The notes under the pieces: generated by a model
The model's database searches: none
Told to the model about the DNA's origin: nothing
The model's input: the letters and a program-made list of their open reading frames with translations, nothing else
Part shown: one piece after another, positions 3,307 through 23,770 of the stretch
Layout of the letters: every line of letters starts with the position of its first letter
How positions within the stretch are numbered: the first letter of the stretch is position 1
Translations under genes and position numbers: made by a program
Origin: a virus
IMG/VR virus record: IMGVR_UViG_3300029959_000004
Span: 32,001 to 96,000 of that record
Direction: 5' to 3' (one strand)
Length of the DNA stretch: 64,000 nt

Positions 3307-3629
3307 TTATAGTATCTTCTACAAAATTTTACAATACCATATTCTTTGATTGTTTTCTTTATTTCTCTATTAACAATTACAAAACTACCATACCAAGCAC
3401 TAAAATCTCTAAAATCATCGCTTACAGAAGCAAGTAAAGGATTATTTAATCCATCTTCACCGCACATATGATGTCTTGCGGTAGTTTTTAATATTTTATG
3501 TACTTTATATAACTGATTGATTGTTCCATAGTTATCTGTATCATGATAATTAGGAGAAATCCAAGATTTTCTACTAACATATCTAACAATGTCTCCTATT
3601 TTTAAATCTTTTGGATGTACAAATCTCAT
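3303..3629 (-). CDS. KOW/SH3-like small protein with C-terminal tag
   Basis: LKIGDIV; ends TIKEYGIVKFCRRYYK. Confidence 0.75.
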   Translation of the reverse strand: MRFVHPKDLKIGDIVRYVSRKSWISPNYHDTDNYGTINQLYKVHKILKTTARHHMCGEDGLNNPLLASVSDDFRDFSAWYGSFVIVNREIKKTIKEYGIVKFCRRYYK

Positions 3630-8375: not shown

Positions 8376-8501
8376 AATCTGACTAAAAAGGTGACTAACT
8401 ACCAATTTTTAGTTCTTATCGTGCTTTATATCAACTGATGTTGATAAAGGCGAGCAGAACCTTTTTAGTTTCGTTAGATTTTCACTAACTCTTCAGAGAT
8501 T
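8376..8501 (-). ncRNA. hammerhead ribozyme, type I, with large insertion in stem III
   Basis: AAUCU-CUGAAGA-GUUAG(ugaaaau)CUAAC-GAAA-CUAAAAAGGU...ACCUUUUUAG-UC^-AGAUU; predicted cut between 8381 and 8380. Confidence 0.85.
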
Positions 8502-12721: not shown

Positions 12722-14968
12722 TTAATCTCCTTTAATTACAGCCAAAGGGCTTAATTCCACAAGTATTTCTACTAAATCCGACTGATTTTTCATAACATCT
12801 TCAATTTTCTTATACGCTCCAGAAGCCTCTTCTAAATTATTTACATTTCTAATACCGTGAATAATTCCTTGATCGTCCAATATCTTAATTTCTTCTTTTA
12901 GATTTAATTGACGACAAGCCTCTTTTCTTCCCATAACTCTACCTGCACCGTGAGAACAACTTTCAAAGCTTTCTTTGTTTCCTAAACCTTTAACTATATA
13001 AGACTTAGTTCCTTGAGATCCCGGTATTATACCTATTGTTCCTTCACGAGCTAATGTTGCTCCTTTTCTATGTACTATTACATTCTCTCCAAAGTGATTT
13101 TCCCATATTGCGTAATTATGTGCTATATTTATTGTTGCTTTACCGCAACCGGTTTCTTGATTGTTTATGTCTTTTAGATAGAATCCTTCATCGTTAAATT
13201 CTTTGTTAAATATCTCTACTATATTACTCATCATTAAAAACCTATTAGCTAAAGCAAAATCCACACAATACTGCATTTCCAACATATAGTCTTTAGCTTC
13301 CTGAGTTTCTATAGGTAAGAAAGCCAATTCACATTCTTTAGGAACATAAACATACCACTTACCGTTTAGGTTCTTTGCTAACTCATTATAATAGTTAGCT
13401 ACTTTATATCCTAAGTTCCGACTTCCTGAATGTATCATAATCCAGATATTATTCTCGGTATCTTTTTGAATCTCAATAAAATGATTTCCCCCTCCTAAAG
13501 TACCGATTTGTTTTAACGCGTTGAAATATTCTTTTTTAATAACATTATAGTTTTCTAACATATCTCTAATTGTTTCTGCTTTAATTGGCATTAAATTTTC
13601 ATCTTGTCTTTCTTTATGACTTCCGTCACGCCCGTTTCCAACAGGAATAACTTCTCTAATCTTTCCCATTATCTTCTTTAAAGTTTCTCTATCTAATTGT
13701 TCTGATTTTAAAGAAGTCTTAACCGCACACATACCGCAATTATGAACAAATACCCCAGAAGATAAGGCAAAATTATGATATTTATCAATAGTTAAACAAT
13801 AAACATCTTCTTTTTTATTTATTAGTTTAATTGAAATAATTTTATGATTTTTTCTATTTTTATTCCAATAAGCTCCAAAACCATATTTTTTACCAATTTC
13901 AGAAGATTTGACTCTTCCTTTTTCAGATTTGTTATATTGAATTAAAAATTTCTTTCCTCTTTCTCCAGCTAATTTAGCTTGTTCTTTAAATTTTTCAGTT
14001 TTTGAATAATTAATCCAATTTTGTATTGCGTTCTTTTTTACAATTTCTTGGAAATCTTTTCTTTGATGTAATTTTCTCATATTTTCTGATGCCATTTTAG
14101 AAAATAAAATGGGATTATTCTTTCTTGCTATTTTAAATCCAACGATACCTAATTTAGAGTTTTTACCAACATTTTTATAATGTATTTCCCAATGTTTTTT
14201 CCAATTAACTCGTTTTATGTTTGTAGGGTTATTGTTATATTTATTAAAATCTATATGGTGTCTAACTCCTTTAGTTTTTTTATAAATACCATTTAATATA
14301 TTAAACTCATCTGCTAAAATATGAATATAGCGATACTTATTATTCTTAGGATTATAAATTACATTATAATCTTTCATTTTTTCTTTTTTAAATTGATGCT
14401 CAAATTCAATATCTTCCACTTCAAATGCTTTATTAATGTAAATTGGCATTAACGATTGTCCAATTTTTAATTTTTTCGCTCTAATTTCTTTATTTTCTCT
14501 ATCATAAAATATATGATCTTTAGTGCATTTAATTATTTCATTATTATCCAATTTTATTTCTAAAAGTTCGTTGGCAATTCGTGTTTTTCTGGGACTATTA
14601 ATTTTTGATATAACAATATTTGATTCTTTATCCAGAGAGTAACAAAAATTTTCTTTACCTCTATTATATTCTTTAATTAATTCTAAAAATGATAAATCTC
14701 TTCCATCAGTTAATTTAACTTTTGTATCACCAGTAAAACATCCAATATCAACACCTACTGCATTAGGTATTACTACTTTCTTAGTAGCTAATACTCCACC
14801 AATAGGCATACCAAATCCTTGATGACAGTCCGGCATTACCGCTATGTGTTTGAAAGCGAATGGTAAATTGGATAAATTAACCAATTGTTTCACAGCTCCG
14901 TCTTCTATCTCATCTAACCACATCTTTATTGGAACTTTTTGTTTATCTGTATCATATATTACTTTCAT
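12722..14968 (-). CDS. rtcB: RtcB RNA ligase (intein-containing)
   Basis: MPDCHQG, VGVDIG|C, GTLGGGNHFIE, HSGSR, HRKGAT, PGSQG, SCSHGAG, EEASGAYK. Confidence 0.95.
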   Translation of the reverse strand: MKVIYDTDKQKVPIKMWLDEIEDGAVKQLVNLSNLPFAFKHIAVMPDCHQGFGMPIGGVLATKKVVIPNAVGVDIGCFTGDTKVKLTDGRDLSFLELIKEYNRGKENFCYSLDKESNIVISKINSPRKTRIANELLEIKLDNNEIIKCTKDHIFYDRENKEIRAKKLKIGQSLMPIYINKAFEVEDIEFEHQFKKEKMKDYNVIYNPKNNKYRYIHILADEFNILNGIYKKTKGVRHHIDFNKYNNNPTNIKRVNWKKHWEIHYKNVGKNSKLGIVGFKIARKNNPILFSKMASENMRKLHQRKDFQEIVKKNAIQNWINYSKTEKFKEQAKLAGERGKKFLIQYNKSEKGRVKSSEIGKKYGFGAYWNKNRKNHKIISIKLINKKEDVYCLTIDKYHNFALSSGVFVHNCGMCAVKTSLKSEQLDRETLKKIMGKIREVIPVGNGRDGSHKERQDENLMPIKAETIRDMLENYNVIKKEYFNALKQIGTLGGGNHFIEIQKDTENNIWIMIHSGSRNLGYKVANYYNELAKNLNGKWYVYVPKECELAFLPIETQEAKDYMLEMQYCVDFALANRFLMMSNIVEIFNKEFNDEGFYLKDINNQETGCGKATINIAHNYAIWENHFGENVIVHRKGATLAREGTIGIIPGSQGTKSYIVKGLGNKESFESCSHGAGRVMGRKEACRQLNLKEEIKILDDQGIIHGIRNVNNLEEASGAYKKIEDVMKNQSDLVEILVELSPLAVIKGD
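13739..14740 (-). mobile_element. 334-aa intein with HNH-like endonuclease insert
   Basis: Starts CFTGDTKVKL; block B CTKDH; internal RHHIDFNKYNNNPTNI; ends VYCLTI...HNFALSSGVFVHN with Cys at +1. Confidence 0.92.
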
Positions 14969-14988
14969 TTTATATTCTCCTCTTTAGA

Positions 14989-15246
14989 TTAGTTTTTAGA
15001 ATCTTGATGTGAAATTCTATATTCCCAATTCCACCAATCTTCTATAGTTCCTACATAAAATGTACCTTTTCTTTCTACAAAACACAGCCACGCTTTAACT
15101 TCTCTTTTATCTTTTGTAATATCTACAACTATAGGAAACCAAGCAAACCACTTGTGCCATTCTTCAAGTTTTTTTATTTCTTTATCTTTAATTTCTTTTT
15201 TCAATCTTACTATATTTTCTTTTGTATAACCATTAGTCCAAATCAT
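14989..15246 (-). CDS. Trp-rich hypothetical protein
   Basis: WHKWFAWFP motif; its SD lies inside hammerhead stem III. Confidence 0.65.
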   Translation of the reverse strand: MIWTNGYTKENIVRLKKEIKDKEIKKLEEWHKWFAWFPIVVDITKDKREVKAWLCFVERKGTFYVGTIEDWWNWEYRISHQDSKN

Positions 15247-15247
15247 C

Positions 15248-15310
15248 TATTCTCCTTTCGGGCTTATTTAATGCCCTCATCAGTTAATGAATTACATTAA
15301 GAGGAACAAT
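15248..15310 (-). ncRNA. hammerhead ribozyme, type III
   Basis: UUCC-UC^-UUAAUG(uaauu)CAUUAA-CUGAUGA-GGGC(auuaaauaa)GCCC-GAAA-GGAG; predicted cut between 15301 and 15300. Confidence 0.9.
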
Positions 15311-15322
15311 CTAAGTAGTAGA
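15306..15322. repeat. 17-bp perfect inverted repeat, arm 1
   Basis: ACAATCTAAGTAGTAGA is the reverse complement of 15834..15850. Confidence 0.9.
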
Positions 15323-15326
15323 TTTT

Positions 15327-15815
15327 TTAGAAATAACTCTCCATTGTCAATAGACCGCCAACAAAAAACACAAAACCTAAAAATAACCAACACAAAATAA
15401 CTATTTCTCGTCTTTCTATTCCATAACAACCACGAAACACACTATCTATATCTCCCAAAGTATGATCCATCTCTTGACCGCTTATTTGATACATAGCTTG
15501 TTGATATTCAAGAGATTTTTCTTTCATTCTAGAAGTTGTTTCTAGTCTGCTTATTAAAGTATCTAATATCTTTAATTGAGTAGATTTAGTCATTCTTTCC
15601 GTTTTAAAGATATAGTTAGCATGTTCTTCGCTAATATTACTAACTTTTTCTCTGTATTCCTTAAAATACATCAGTTTATCTTTAGCTGTTGAAGCGTCAT
15701 CCGCTAATTTTAAGAACTGTTTATATTTTACCTCGTAGTTATATGCAATATCAACTCCGAGAATTGTTCCTAAAACAAAAAACAATATTGCAAGACCAAA
15801 TAATAGAAATTTCAT
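15327..15815 (-). CDS. two-TM membrane protein
   Basis: Hydrophobic N- and C-terminal helices. Confidence 0.7.
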   Translation of the reverse strand: MKFLLFGLAILFFVLGTILGVDIAYNYEVKYKQFLKLADDASTAKDKLMYFKEYREKVSNISEEHANYIFKTERMTKSTQLKILDTLISRLETTSRMKEKSLEYQQAMYQISGQEMDHTLGDIDSVFRGCYGIERREIVILCWLFLGFVFFVGGLLTMESYF

Positions 15816-15833
15816 TCTTATCTCCTTTTTTGG

Positions 15834-15850
15834 TCTACTACTTAGATTGT
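15834..15850. repeat. 17-bp perfect inverted repeat, arm 2
   Basis: TCTACTACTTAGATTGT. Confidence 0.9.
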
Positions 15851-15858
15851 CAAAGAAC
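15847..15858 (-). promoter_or_regulatory. boxA-like (NusB/NusE) element
   Basis: GTTCTTTGACAA, intergenic; a near-identical copy lies at 23051..23062. Confidence 0.6.
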
Positions 15859-15867
15859 CAAACTTAT

Positions 15868-16194
15868 TTACAAACAGATAGCTTGATGTGTTTTTTCATA
15901 TTCTTCCACGAACTTACATATTATAGTTCCATAGTCTCCTTCTATTCTCTCATTAGTATCTTTCTTAACAATAGACCAAGTTACAACCTGATGTTGTAAG
16001 TAGTTTTTATACTCCATTCTTTGTAGCATTATGTTATTATCCGTAAGAATATGAAAATTCTTTCTATCTCTCATTGCCATTTTCTGTGTTCCCATATAAA
16101 TTTTCCAAGCGTGTTCTTTTGCTCTTGCTAAAACCACATCAATTTGTTGCTTTTCTGTCAGGTTATTTAGCTTATTTACAACGTTTTGATCCAT
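15868..16194 (-). CDS. hypothetical protein
   Basis: ORF track; SD AGGAGG. Confidence 0.6.
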   Translation of the reverse strand: MDQNVVNKLNNLTEKQQIDVVLARAKEHAWKIYMGTQKMAMRDRKNFHILTDNNIMLQRMEYKNYLQHQVVTWSIVKKDTNERIEGDYGTIICKFVEEYEKTHQAICL

Positions 16195-16209
16195 TTTACT
16201 TCCTCCTAT

Positions 16210-16437
16210 TTAATAACCAAATTTATTTAGAGTATTGTCTAAATACGCTCTCATTACAATTAAAGTCGCTAAAAATTCATCATCTACGGTTATTTTTGTT
16301 CCACTTAAAGCTACAATATCGTCTAAAGCTACAATATCGTCAATTCTTTTTAATTTAGAGACCTTTTCATTTAGATTATCTGAAATTTTAAACATTTCAT
16401 CTCTACTTAATTTCTTTTTATTATTTCTCATTATCAA
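16210..16437 (-). CDS. hypothetical protein with internal DDIVAL duplication
   Basis: ORF track. Confidence 0.5.
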   Translation of the reverse strand: MIMRNNKKKLSRDEMFKISDNLNEKVSKLKRIDDIVALDDIVALSGTKITVDDEFLATLIVMRAYLDNTLNKFGY

Positions 16438-16572: not shown

Positions 16573-16632
16573 GGTCTCATTCAGTTTTGTATTAAACAAA
16601 AGACGGAGATAATGTAACTCTCCGTTTCGACC
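16573..16632 (-). ncRNA. hammerhead ribozyme, type II, variant core CUGAAUGA
   Basis: GGUC-GAAA-CGGAGA(guuacauua)UCUCCG-UC^-UUUUGU(uuaau)ACAAAA-CUGAAUGA-GACC; predicted cut between 16602 and 16601. Confidence 0.85.
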
Positions 16633-20474: not shown

Positions 20475-20510
20475 AAAAAAACCGTCTACTCCTGTTACGA
20501 ATAGACGGTC
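20475..20510 (-). terminator. intrinsic terminator
   Basis: ACCGUCUA...UAGACGGU stem followed by a U run on the minus strand. Confidence 0.65.
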
Positions 20511-22109: not shown

Positions 22110-22673
22110 ATTCTTTTATGCTGGATTAGCGTATTCGCTTTCATCCGCTACTTTACCACTTAATAACACAATAATACCGAGTAATATATTCATATTTATC
22201 TCCTATGTTTCGCTAAAGTCAATCCAGCCCAATCTATATGAGCATATCCTTGTTCCTTAGTATTCTTCATATAAAACTTGCAATTCATAGTCATCCAAAG
22301 ACTTTTCGGACTATTAAACGGTCTAATCTCCATAATACGTAAAAACTCTTCTCTTTTATGCAACTCTTCAAATTCCTTGTCTAATCCTTCTCTTGAACCA
22401 GTAAAAACAACAGATTTAACTCCTAAAGAGTTAAATTCTTCTAACAATTCGTCTTTTTCTGTCTTATGCTCCAAAAGTAACATATTTAACTCCATATTGC
22501 TTTTTAAATCTATTTTTCTAATGAAAACGTTTTCTTTTCTGTGTATAACTCTGTTAATAACTAATCCTAACTTATTAACAAACTTATTAACTTTTATGTG
22601 ATTTCCTTCACAAAAACCTTTAAAAAAATTTATGTATAACAAGATAAAACACAAGAAAACTCTTTTTATTAGT

Positions 22674-22949
22674 TTATAACTTGACGATTGCCTCATTAAA
22701 GTAATGAGTATCAACCGTCTTTACTACAAAAGACTTACCTCTTGAAACTTCAATACCTAACTTCTTTAAAGCAGAATACAACGCCTGAATATGTATCTTG
22801 TCGCAATCAAGCATTTCTGCCGTAATCTTAGTAATCTCTGCTTTGTTAGCCTTCTCACTTCTTAAGAAATCAAGAAGTTTATTGCTAACGCTGTTAACCC
22901 TAACTCTTGAAACACTTGCTAAAGCGTCAAACTCATTTAATAAACTCAT
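22674..22949 (-). CDS. small putative DNA-binding protein, first gene of leftward arm
   Basis: ORF track; wHTH-like pattern is inference. Confidence 0.5.
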   Translation of the reverse strand: MSLLNEFDALASVSRVRVNSVSNKLLDFLRSEKANKAEITKITAEMLDCDKIHIQALYSALKKLGIEVSRGKSFVVKTVDTHYFNEAIVKL

Positions 22950-23050
22950 TTTAATCCCCCTTTTTATTAGTTAATTTGCGACTATTCTTTAATAAATAGT
23001 TTTTGCTGTTAGATACTTAACTAATTTTAGGAGTTTTCTTGTGCTTTAAC

Positions 23051-23062
23051 TTGTCAAAGATC
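23051..23062 (-). promoter_or_regulatory. boxA-like element in leader of leftward operon
   Basis: GATCTTTGACAA about 40 nt downstream of a candidate promoter. Confidence 0.6.
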
Positions 23063-23104
23063 CGTGCTATTTCCTAATTACTCTTGCTTGCTTCTTACTC
23101 TCTT

Positions 23105-23132
23105 ACTATAACACTATAAGAAAATATGTAAA
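23105..23132 (-). promoter_or_regulatory. candidate leftward sigma70 promoter
   Basis: TTTACA-16 nt-TATAGT with extended TG. Confidence 0.45.
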
Positions 23133-23498
23133 GATAAATTCAATCAAACTTGTTTTCTCAAGACTTCAAAAGCCGACTATACTAAACATACTATCAAGAT
23201 AATACTATAATAGTATAATAATAAGAGATAATACTCAATACTTAAAAGCTCGTCGCTGTTAAGTAAATCTTATACTAAGTCAATAGTCTTTTTCTCTATC
23301 TATATGCACGGGTACAGTTTAGCTATGCGTTCCGAGAGTAAAAATAGACTCGACTGTTCCTTTCTCTGAATTTAACCTTATTTATTACAACGTATTGTGT
23401 GTATAATTGCTTGTTAATGAGTGTTTATGTCATATTCTTATTTATTTTGTATAATTTATGATTATTTAGATTAATTTTAAAAATAGTTAAAATAAGTC

Positions 23499-23526
23499 TT
23501 GACAAATGATTGATTTTGTATATAAA
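23499..23526 (+). promoter_or_regulatory. candidate rightward sigma70 promoter
   Basis: TTGACA-16 nt-TATAAA in the AT-rich divergent gap. Confidence 0.45.
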
Positions 23527-23770
23527 TATATATGAGAGCTATGAATATTGATACTATATTTATTTTTAATATAACTACATATATAACAACAAGTTAAGTA
23601 TAAAATGAGTAAAAAAAGAGTATTTAGAAGAGAAACTAAGAGTATATCTGAACAAGTAGAAGATCACTTTAAGTATATGTCTCACAAGGGAGCTAGAAAG
23701 CAGAAAATTGTTAATTTTAAAGACCCTCTGTGGAGACCGAACGGAAATTTAATAGAATAAAGGAAATAAT

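Follow-up and report, generated by a model that had tools for sequence, protein, structure and literature searches.

A perfect 17-bp long-range inverted repeat around a single phage cistron, next to a predicted type III hammerhead motif

The membrane-protein gene and its surroundings

The window analysed here is a stretch of 64,000 nt (bases 32001–96000) of an IMG/VR virus record of 109,385 bp, which has direct terminal repeats and a G+C content of 31%; coordinates refer to this window unless marked as genome. The phage DNA comes from groundwater metagenomes. The minus strand carries all genes around the locus; they belong to a long leftward run of small ORFs that starts at a divergent promoter region near 23100–23600. 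Here, a gene for a membrane protein is enclosed by the two arms of a perfect inverted repeat and is followed by a hammerhead-like motif, a short ORF and rtcB. These features and two further hammerhead-like motifs, in order of transcription, are:

16573..16632, minus strand: type II hammerhead-like motif, core CUGAAUGA with one extra base after A6, found by hand reading
15834..15850, minus strand: 5′ arm of the long-range stem, transcribed as ACAAUCUAAGUAGUAGA, in the 52-nt gap that separates the stop of ORF 15868..16194 from the start of the membrane-protein gene
15327..15815, minus strand: enclosed membrane-protein gene, 162 aa, with its own GGAG at 15825–15822
15306..15322, minus strand: 3′ arm of the stem, exact complement of the 5′ arm, last base U15306
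15252..15306, minus strand: type III hammerhead-like motif, found by hand reading and a descriptor search
14989..15246, minus strand: 85-aa ORF, next downstream, with its ribosome-binding site inside stem III
12722..14968, minus strand: rtcB (RNA 2′,3′-cyclic phosphate to 5′-OH ligase), one gene downstream of the type III motif
8376..8501, minus strand: type I hammerhead-like motif with a stem III insert of ~70 nt, found by hand reading

The 162-aa product has hydrophobic N- and C-terminal segments and a conserved core, EYQQAMYQISGQE, and could be assigned to no Pfam or PHROG family. Eleven homologues with 42–83% identity were found in metagenomes, which indicates that this is a real gene; the close homologues P0002–P0005 share 51–83% identity by BLASTP, and homologues also occur in unrelated organisms, for example in Acidobacteriota MAGs. 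The protein and its neighbours have almost no matches in IMG/VR and none in GenBank phages. Loci of distant homologues from metagenomes and GTDB (34–60% identity) have neither a long-range clamp of the kind described below nor a hammerhead. On one of these, a 41-kb metagenome contig, the same leader of ~27 nt precedes both the membrane-protein gene and the next gene (L008:2940–2975 and 3480–3515); it holds a GCC-GAAA-GGC hairpin and is a direct repeat, with no clamp. A protein identical to the enclosed gene product (P0001, 15327–15815) is found on three contigs, the longest of which measures 419,765 bp as against 109 kb for the virus record (CheckV 80% complete). This record could belong to a larger genome, or the 419,765-bp contig could be a different assembly.

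A promoter-like box, TCTTGACAAA-N16-TATAAAT, recurs at genome positions 10219, 22663, 27773 and 33349 (minus) and 55499, 71013 and 90550 (plus), with examples in the window at 1349 and 23499. Three copies are near-identical over 38 nt, which suggests that they form a group of promoters used early. The leftward gene block contains, in the interval between the two boxA-like sites discussed below, a strong intrinsic-terminator-like hairpin with a 12-bp stem and a U run (window 20480–20510, minus strand, read from 20510 to 20480); genes beyond it would therefore need read-through or promoters of their own. A perfect 18-nt tandem duplication at 16306–16341, within the 75-aa ORF 16210..16437, leads to a repeated DDIVAL in the protein. 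A Bacillota-like host would fit the strong Shine–Dalgarno sites, the TTGACA/TATAAT promoters and the presence of a YopX gene; the lysin gene gave no usable assignment as a host indicator.

Read along the transcript, the type III motif consists of the 5′ strand of stem III (15306–15302, UUCCU), the cut position C15301, stem I (15300–15284), CUGAUGA (15283–15277), stem II (15276–15260), GAAA (15259–15256) and GGAG (15255–15252). The hammerhead core is complete (C3 U4 G5 A6 N7 G8 A9, G12 A13 A14, A15.1–U16.1 and H17, here C17), its residues lying in U15302, C15301, CUGAUGA and GAAA, and the cut is predicted between C15301 and U15300. Stems I, II and III comprise 6, 4 and 4 pairs, respectively, to which stem III adds one A-U and one G·U; stems I and II are capped, stem III is open, and no mispair lies next to the core. 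The GGAG that pairs with UUCC in stem III also serves as the Shine–Dalgarno sequence of ORF 14989..15246. A lenient type III descriptor, which requires the core and, in the correct order, the three helices, matched the genome once, at this site, compared with 0.01 matches per shuffled genome. Rfam returned no hammerhead in the window at the gathering score and none at E ≤ 10 in the 1.5 kb and 106 nt around the motif, and RF00008, RF02276 and RF00163 had no match in the whole genome, the motif thus not reaching the RF00008 gathering threshold. The isolated 63-nt motif folds weakly (z = −1.0) and lacks the canonical junction, the predicted probability of stem III is ~0.01, and the A-U-rich stem I and the stem III of 5 pairs are marginal. 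We take the motif for a probable, putatively self-cleaving hammerhead.

All three hammerhead-like motifs share one strand and occupy intergenic gaps, and the type II and type III motifs (16632–16573 and 15306–15252) bracket four ORFs. The type II motif folds as a clean three-way junction (z = −2.9) and has no match to Rfam RF02276; insertion of a base at A6a has been associated with low activity in hammerheads (Perreault et al. 2011, PMC3088659). The type I motif likewise has no Rfam match, and neither of these two motifs carries a long-range clamp. Pattern scans of IMG/VR for similar hammerheads gave unrelated or coding matches only, or none. The rtcB gene is split by an intein (Intein_splicing/Hint) that bears an HNH-endonuclease-like segment.

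The long-range stem and its junction motif

An inverted-repeat search paired 15306–15322 with 15834–15850 at 17 of 17 positions, with 511 nt between the arms, which places a 17-nt exact complement (100%) just where the initial annotation of this DNA had claimed one. Both arms are confined to the non-coding gaps that flank one minus-strand gene, that of the 162-aa membrane protein, so the stem would, on forming, loop out a single gene, as had been proposed. The 5′ arm ends 8 nt before the GGAG of this gene (15825–15822), and the 3′ arm begins 4 nt past its UAA stop codon (15329–15327); the helix ends 19 nt before the AUG and restarts 4 nt after the stop of the enclosed cistron, a geometry that is compatible with its translation. 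The distance of 5 nt from the 3′ arm to the predicted hammerhead cut was confirmed by reading (U15306, with the cut after C15301). U15306 is also able to form the outermost G·U pair of stem III and is the sole base that arm and stem III have in common, to which the earlier claim of an overlap with outer stem III comes down.

Folding of the 641-nt cistron yields the stem in both the MFE and centroid structures, with pair probabilities of 0.69–1.0 and z = −3.1. In contexts of 1.3–1.5 kb its probability drops to 0.14 and then to 0.01 or less, and the stem is not dominant; enforcing it there costs 0.4–3.3 kcal/mol over the optimum. The structures that compete with it in these long contexts are formed by coding regions, which ribosomes would open.

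Perfect inverted repeats of at least 17 within 1 kb arose in 5 of 200 Markov shuffles of the window, and the length of the stem is therefore by itself only moderately unusual. Its placement is much more unusual than its length. When the 70 nt upstream and the 70 nt downstream of each of ~175 ORFs were compared for contiguous pairing, the membrane-protein gene gave 17 bp and the next best gene 10 bp; the longest pairing among non-cognate flank pairs (n = 6966) was 13. The 40 nt 5′ of the hammerhead pair over 17 bp with the 2.5 kb upstream, and none of 300 random controls exceeded 15. The structure is real, well placed and statistically isolated in its genome.

The strongest long-range inverted repeat of the whole genome (22632–22674/23019–23061) also encloses a gene, and its 5′ base carries a second copy of the boxA-like 13-mer that lies at the base of the 17-bp stem. 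The features of this second site, together with the first copy of the 13-mer, are:

23132–23105, minus strand: promoter-like site TTTACA-16-TGnTATAGT, ~35 nt upstream of the second 13-mer copy
23019..23063, minus strand: 5′ side of the second stem, GGAUCUUUGACAA and the 5′ arm of a 7+18+7-bp stem
22674..22949, minus strand: 91-aa ORF enclosed by the second stem, first gene of the leftward operon
22632..22674, minus strand: 3′ arm of the second stem, starting at the stop codon of the enclosed ORF, then a run of 7 U
15847..15859, minus strand: boxA-like 13-mer at site 1, GGUUCUUUGACAA, at the single-strand/helix junction

With its interruptions the second stem (7+18+7 bp) amounts to 32 bp, including two G·U pairs on the sense strand, and its folding energy favours the sense over the antisense strand (−37.5 versus −33.9 kcal/mol); the MFE and the centroid structure both include it (z = −4.8). 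In the remaining long-range inverted repeats of the genome, the arms fall within coding regions. The 13-mer, GGWUCUUUGACAA, occurs exactly twice in 109 kb, the second time at 23051–23063, where 0.01 copies are expected for a pattern that was, however, defined after the fact. At site 1, GUUCUUUGACAA (15858→15847) shares its ACAA with the 5′ arm (15850→15834): GGUUCUUU is unpaired, and G15851·U15305 followed by ACAA starts the helix. Each copy stands in the same register at the 5′ base of a gene-enclosing long-range stem, and in both folds GGWUCUU(U) is unpaired and the opening pairs (G·U, A-U, C-G, A-U, A-U) are identical. By our estimate, given the sequence of site 1, a 12-of-13 match as close as 10 nt or less to the second stem's 5′ arm would arise by chance with a probability of ~1e-5. 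The junction motif thus recurs, and beyond it the arms of the two stems are unrelated, which points to a recognition element. The 13-mer is probably a site recognized by a protein, with a NusB/NusE-type boxA and an endonuclease site as the candidates.

The recurrence of the motif bears on whether the 17-bp repeat has any function at all. A chance or neutral repeat that fell in two intergenic gaps of an A+T-rich genome seems unlikely, but is by no means negligible: shuffled windows do reach perfect repeats of this length (5/200), a survey of very many windows is bound to meet such cases, and the stem does not dominate the long-context folds. Chance accounts poorly, in turn, for a pairing of 17 between both short gaps of one gene when 6966 pairs of flanks reached 13 at most, for an arm that abuts the only type III hammerhead motif of the genome, and for a 13-mer in common with the other gene-enclosing stem of that genome, a coincidence of ~1e-5 by our estimate.

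As to what the 13-mer is, the initial annotation had called a boxA-like site at the stem. The resemblance is real: GUUCUUUGACA agrees at 10 of 11 positions with the boxA consensus GYTCTTTAANA, which is gamma-proteobacterial and may not be that of the host (PMC5725501). The 13-mer also equals the −35 box of the phage promoters plus one T, so that the likeness to boxA may be coincidental; this −35 box, TCTTGACAA, is present in at least seven promoter-like sites. Compared with GTTCTTTGAAAA, from a probe for the 16S–23S spacer of Mollicutes and an element that we take to be boxA, the 13-mer matches at 11 of 12 positions. Two other roles were considered and rejected. As a promoter, the 13-mer offers a −35-like TTGACA but no −10 after either copy, and “helix B” of the MFE fold, in which the boxA-like tract pairs with the ribosome-binding site downstream, does not exceed chance expectation.

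If the 13-mer were a true boxA, it would recruit host NusB/NusE, together with NusA/NusG, to RNA polymerase, the 5′ arm would stay tethered at the RNA exit until the 3′ arm had been made, as in rRNA operons, and RNase III would process the completed stem and so excise the cistron. Besides the two sequence matches, this is consistent with both copies in 109 kb abutting the 5′ arm of a long-range stem (0.01 expected), with the position of the site 2 copy ~35 nt past a promoter-like site and with the presence of the terminator at 20510–20480 in the operon. However, neither a boxB hairpin nor a boxC lies beside either copy and no local hairpin follows. The phage has no RNase III gene of its own, and a stem of 17–18 bp is on the short side for this enzyme, whose substrates span roughly two turns of fairly regular duplex and are cut with a 2-nt stagger. 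An RNase III cut on the 3′ side would moreover be redundant, because the hammerhead lies 5 nt away. We therefore regard the boxA/Nus reading as possible, yet as a minority hypothesis that is rather improbable. The 13-mer could alternatively be an endonuclease site immediately before the 5′ strand of a helix. In low-G+C Gram-positive bacteria, enzymes of the RNase Y type have been reported to cut at such positions.

A proposed mRNA-level clamp at a ribozyme-made 3′ end

Our preferred reading, plausible if somewhat short of probable, is that the inverted repeat forms an mRNA-level clamp that works with a ribozyme-made 3′ end. We infer that the locus is transcribed as a single leftward polycistronic RNA, in which the 17 nt before the ribosome-binding site would pair in vivo with the 17 nt past the stop codon and close the single membrane-protein cistron into a loop. 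The short stem III of the type III hammerhead would be stacked directly against the long-range helix, which could shield the weak ribozyme fold from the coding sequence upstream. Self-cleavage between C15301 and U15300 would then leave the upstream RNA ending in a 17–18-bp duplex and a 4–5-nt tail with a 2′,3′-cyclic phosphate. Because this end lacks a terminator hairpin, the clamp would act as a 3′ stabiliser, and the duplex may provide a terminator-independent, exonuclease-resistant 3′ end. Cleavage and release would in addition free the GGAG for translation of the 85-aa gene, and perhaps of rtcB behind it. Several points weigh against the clamp. A perfect repeat carries no strand information, so covariation cannot show, and across many genomes some 17-bp gene-flanking repeats are to be expected by chance. 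The loci of distant homologues and the two other hammerhead-like motifs lack a clamp, the 5′ arm has neither a promoter nor a second ribozyme next to it, the stem loses its predicted probability in long contexts, and the type III motif escapes Rfam and folds poorly by itself.

RNA looping had been put forward in the initial annotation as Nus-assisted and as tuning cleavage, processing or ligation. This is supported in part: an RNA-level reading is favoured over DNA inversion, because both arms stay clear of coding sequence, the 3′ arm runs straight into the ribozyme motif (at stem III), the spacing is compatible with translation, and the second stem has G·U pairs on the sense strand. Nus-assisted looping may tune any of the three processes, and carries over as the minority hypothesis described above.

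The DNA element that had been named as the alternative would make the arms either the sites at which an invertible segment recombines or the terminal inverted repeats (or the scar) left by a small mobile cassette that introduced the membrane-protein gene. A perfect repeat is what a recent DNA-level origin or recombinase core sites would give, and the repeat brackets exactly one accessory-type gene with homologues in organisms as unrelated as the Acidobacteriota MAGs. There is also an ORF of 296 aa, ~18 kb away, with sub-threshold matches to tyrosine recombinases. This ORF lies outside the window (genome 28845–29735, minus strand) and scores 15 bits with Pfam PF00589 and E = 0.006 with a PHROG integrase; the phage that carries it is otherwise virulent-looking and has terminal repeats. 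The matches are, however, under both curated cut-offs, no such gene is adjacent to the segment, and a serine recombinase/resolvase (PF00239) has no match in the genome. The arms show no target-site duplication, and their flanks differ. No further copy of an arm exists in the genome at up to three mismatches; the exact 17-mer has three single matches in IMG/VR, none with a partner arm, and this number of matches lies within our chance expectation for a collection of that size. The G+C content of the cassette is identical to that of its flanks, and inversion would merely silence the gene and part the arm from the ribozyme. Neither a joint nor an inverted form was seen in the contigs of three groundwater DNA runs, which is weak evidence since contigs drop and so hide minor forms, and in two of the three runs the contigs comprised identical fragments only and did not cover the arms; the third run is the probable source of the phage DNA. 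Lacking a recombinase, a duplication, further copies or an inverted form (the last from contigs only), the proposal of an invertible or mobile cassette is unsupported, and we judge it quite unlikely.

The mRNA clamp may also be viewed more broadly. The 13-mer and a long-range helix could together form a reusable RNA module that closes single cistrons co-transcriptionally, with a hammerhead-made 3′ end at site 1 and with RtcB resealing or circularising the product. This extension is very doubtful; if true, it would be a previously undescribed way for bacteria and phages to make mRNAs that are stable or can be switched. The 5′ arm lies inside the operon and has no promoter beside it, and no Rfam family is significant as a ribozyme there across 14800–16300. 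The clamp therefore does not join the ends of a ribozyme-to-ribozyme product (16601 to 15301), and circularisation of this cistron by RtcB is unsupported.

Comparison with known systems

Invertible segments of the Hin/Gin/Cin type and MITE-like cassettes share with this locus short perfect inverted repeats around a small segment. They differ in that here there is no adjacent recombinase, target-site duplication or other copy, no inverted form was seen, and the segment contains a whole gene, ribosome-binding site included. Closer in possible function are the hairpins that stabilise 3′ ends, such as terminators and the RNase III-site hairpins of T7, which share with the proposed clamp a stable duplex near the 3′ end that would block 3′-to-5′ exonucleases. 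In the clamp, by contrast, the partner strand would be the cistron's own 5′ leader, 511 nt away, and the end would be made by a ribozyme.

Clustered hammerheads that flank single genes or short gene blocks have been described in prophages and phages, where their proposed role is to cut a long transcript into shorter mRNAs (Perreault et al. 2011, PMC3088659). The present locus resembles these in having several hammerhead-type motifs between the genes of a phage operon, on the coding strand, and in that two of the motifs bracket a short block. It differs in that one motif carries a candidate clamp and that the rtcB ligase gene lies one gene downstream; in that paper and the literature searched we found no long-range helix joining the leader of a cistron to the bases just 5′ of a ribozyme. 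The role of hammerheads in phage operons has been a standing question since their discovery there in 2011. Tying a ribozyme-made 3′ end to the message's own leader would give them a concrete one, the production of defined and protected single-gene messages without terminators.

The second site invites comparison with the lambda pL–nutL–N leader, in which boxA and boxB are followed by an RNase III-sensitive stem before the small N gene. Much as in lambda, a promoter-like site is followed within ~35 nt by a boxA-like sequence, and then come a large stem and the first gene of an early operon, again a small one. Unlike in lambda, the whole gene lies within the stem, a boxB hairpin is absent, and the 91-aa product has no arginine-rich motif.

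The junction motif common to both stems suggests that a protein reads them, and the layout at site 1 resembles that of an rRNA operon leader, in which boxA (the NusB/NusE site) is followed by a long-range RNase III processing stem around 16S rRNA. In both cases a boxA-like sequence stands at the 5′ strand of a helix, the 3′ strand follows hundreds of nt later and the unit between them is, or in the phage would be, looped out. The phage unit differs in being a protein-coding cistron, in its stem of 17–18 bp where those of rRNA are longer, in having no boxB or boxC, and in a 3′ end apparently made by a ribozyme. If the protein that reads the stems were the Nus complex, co-transcriptional long-range folding in the style of rRNA would extend to phage mRNAs.
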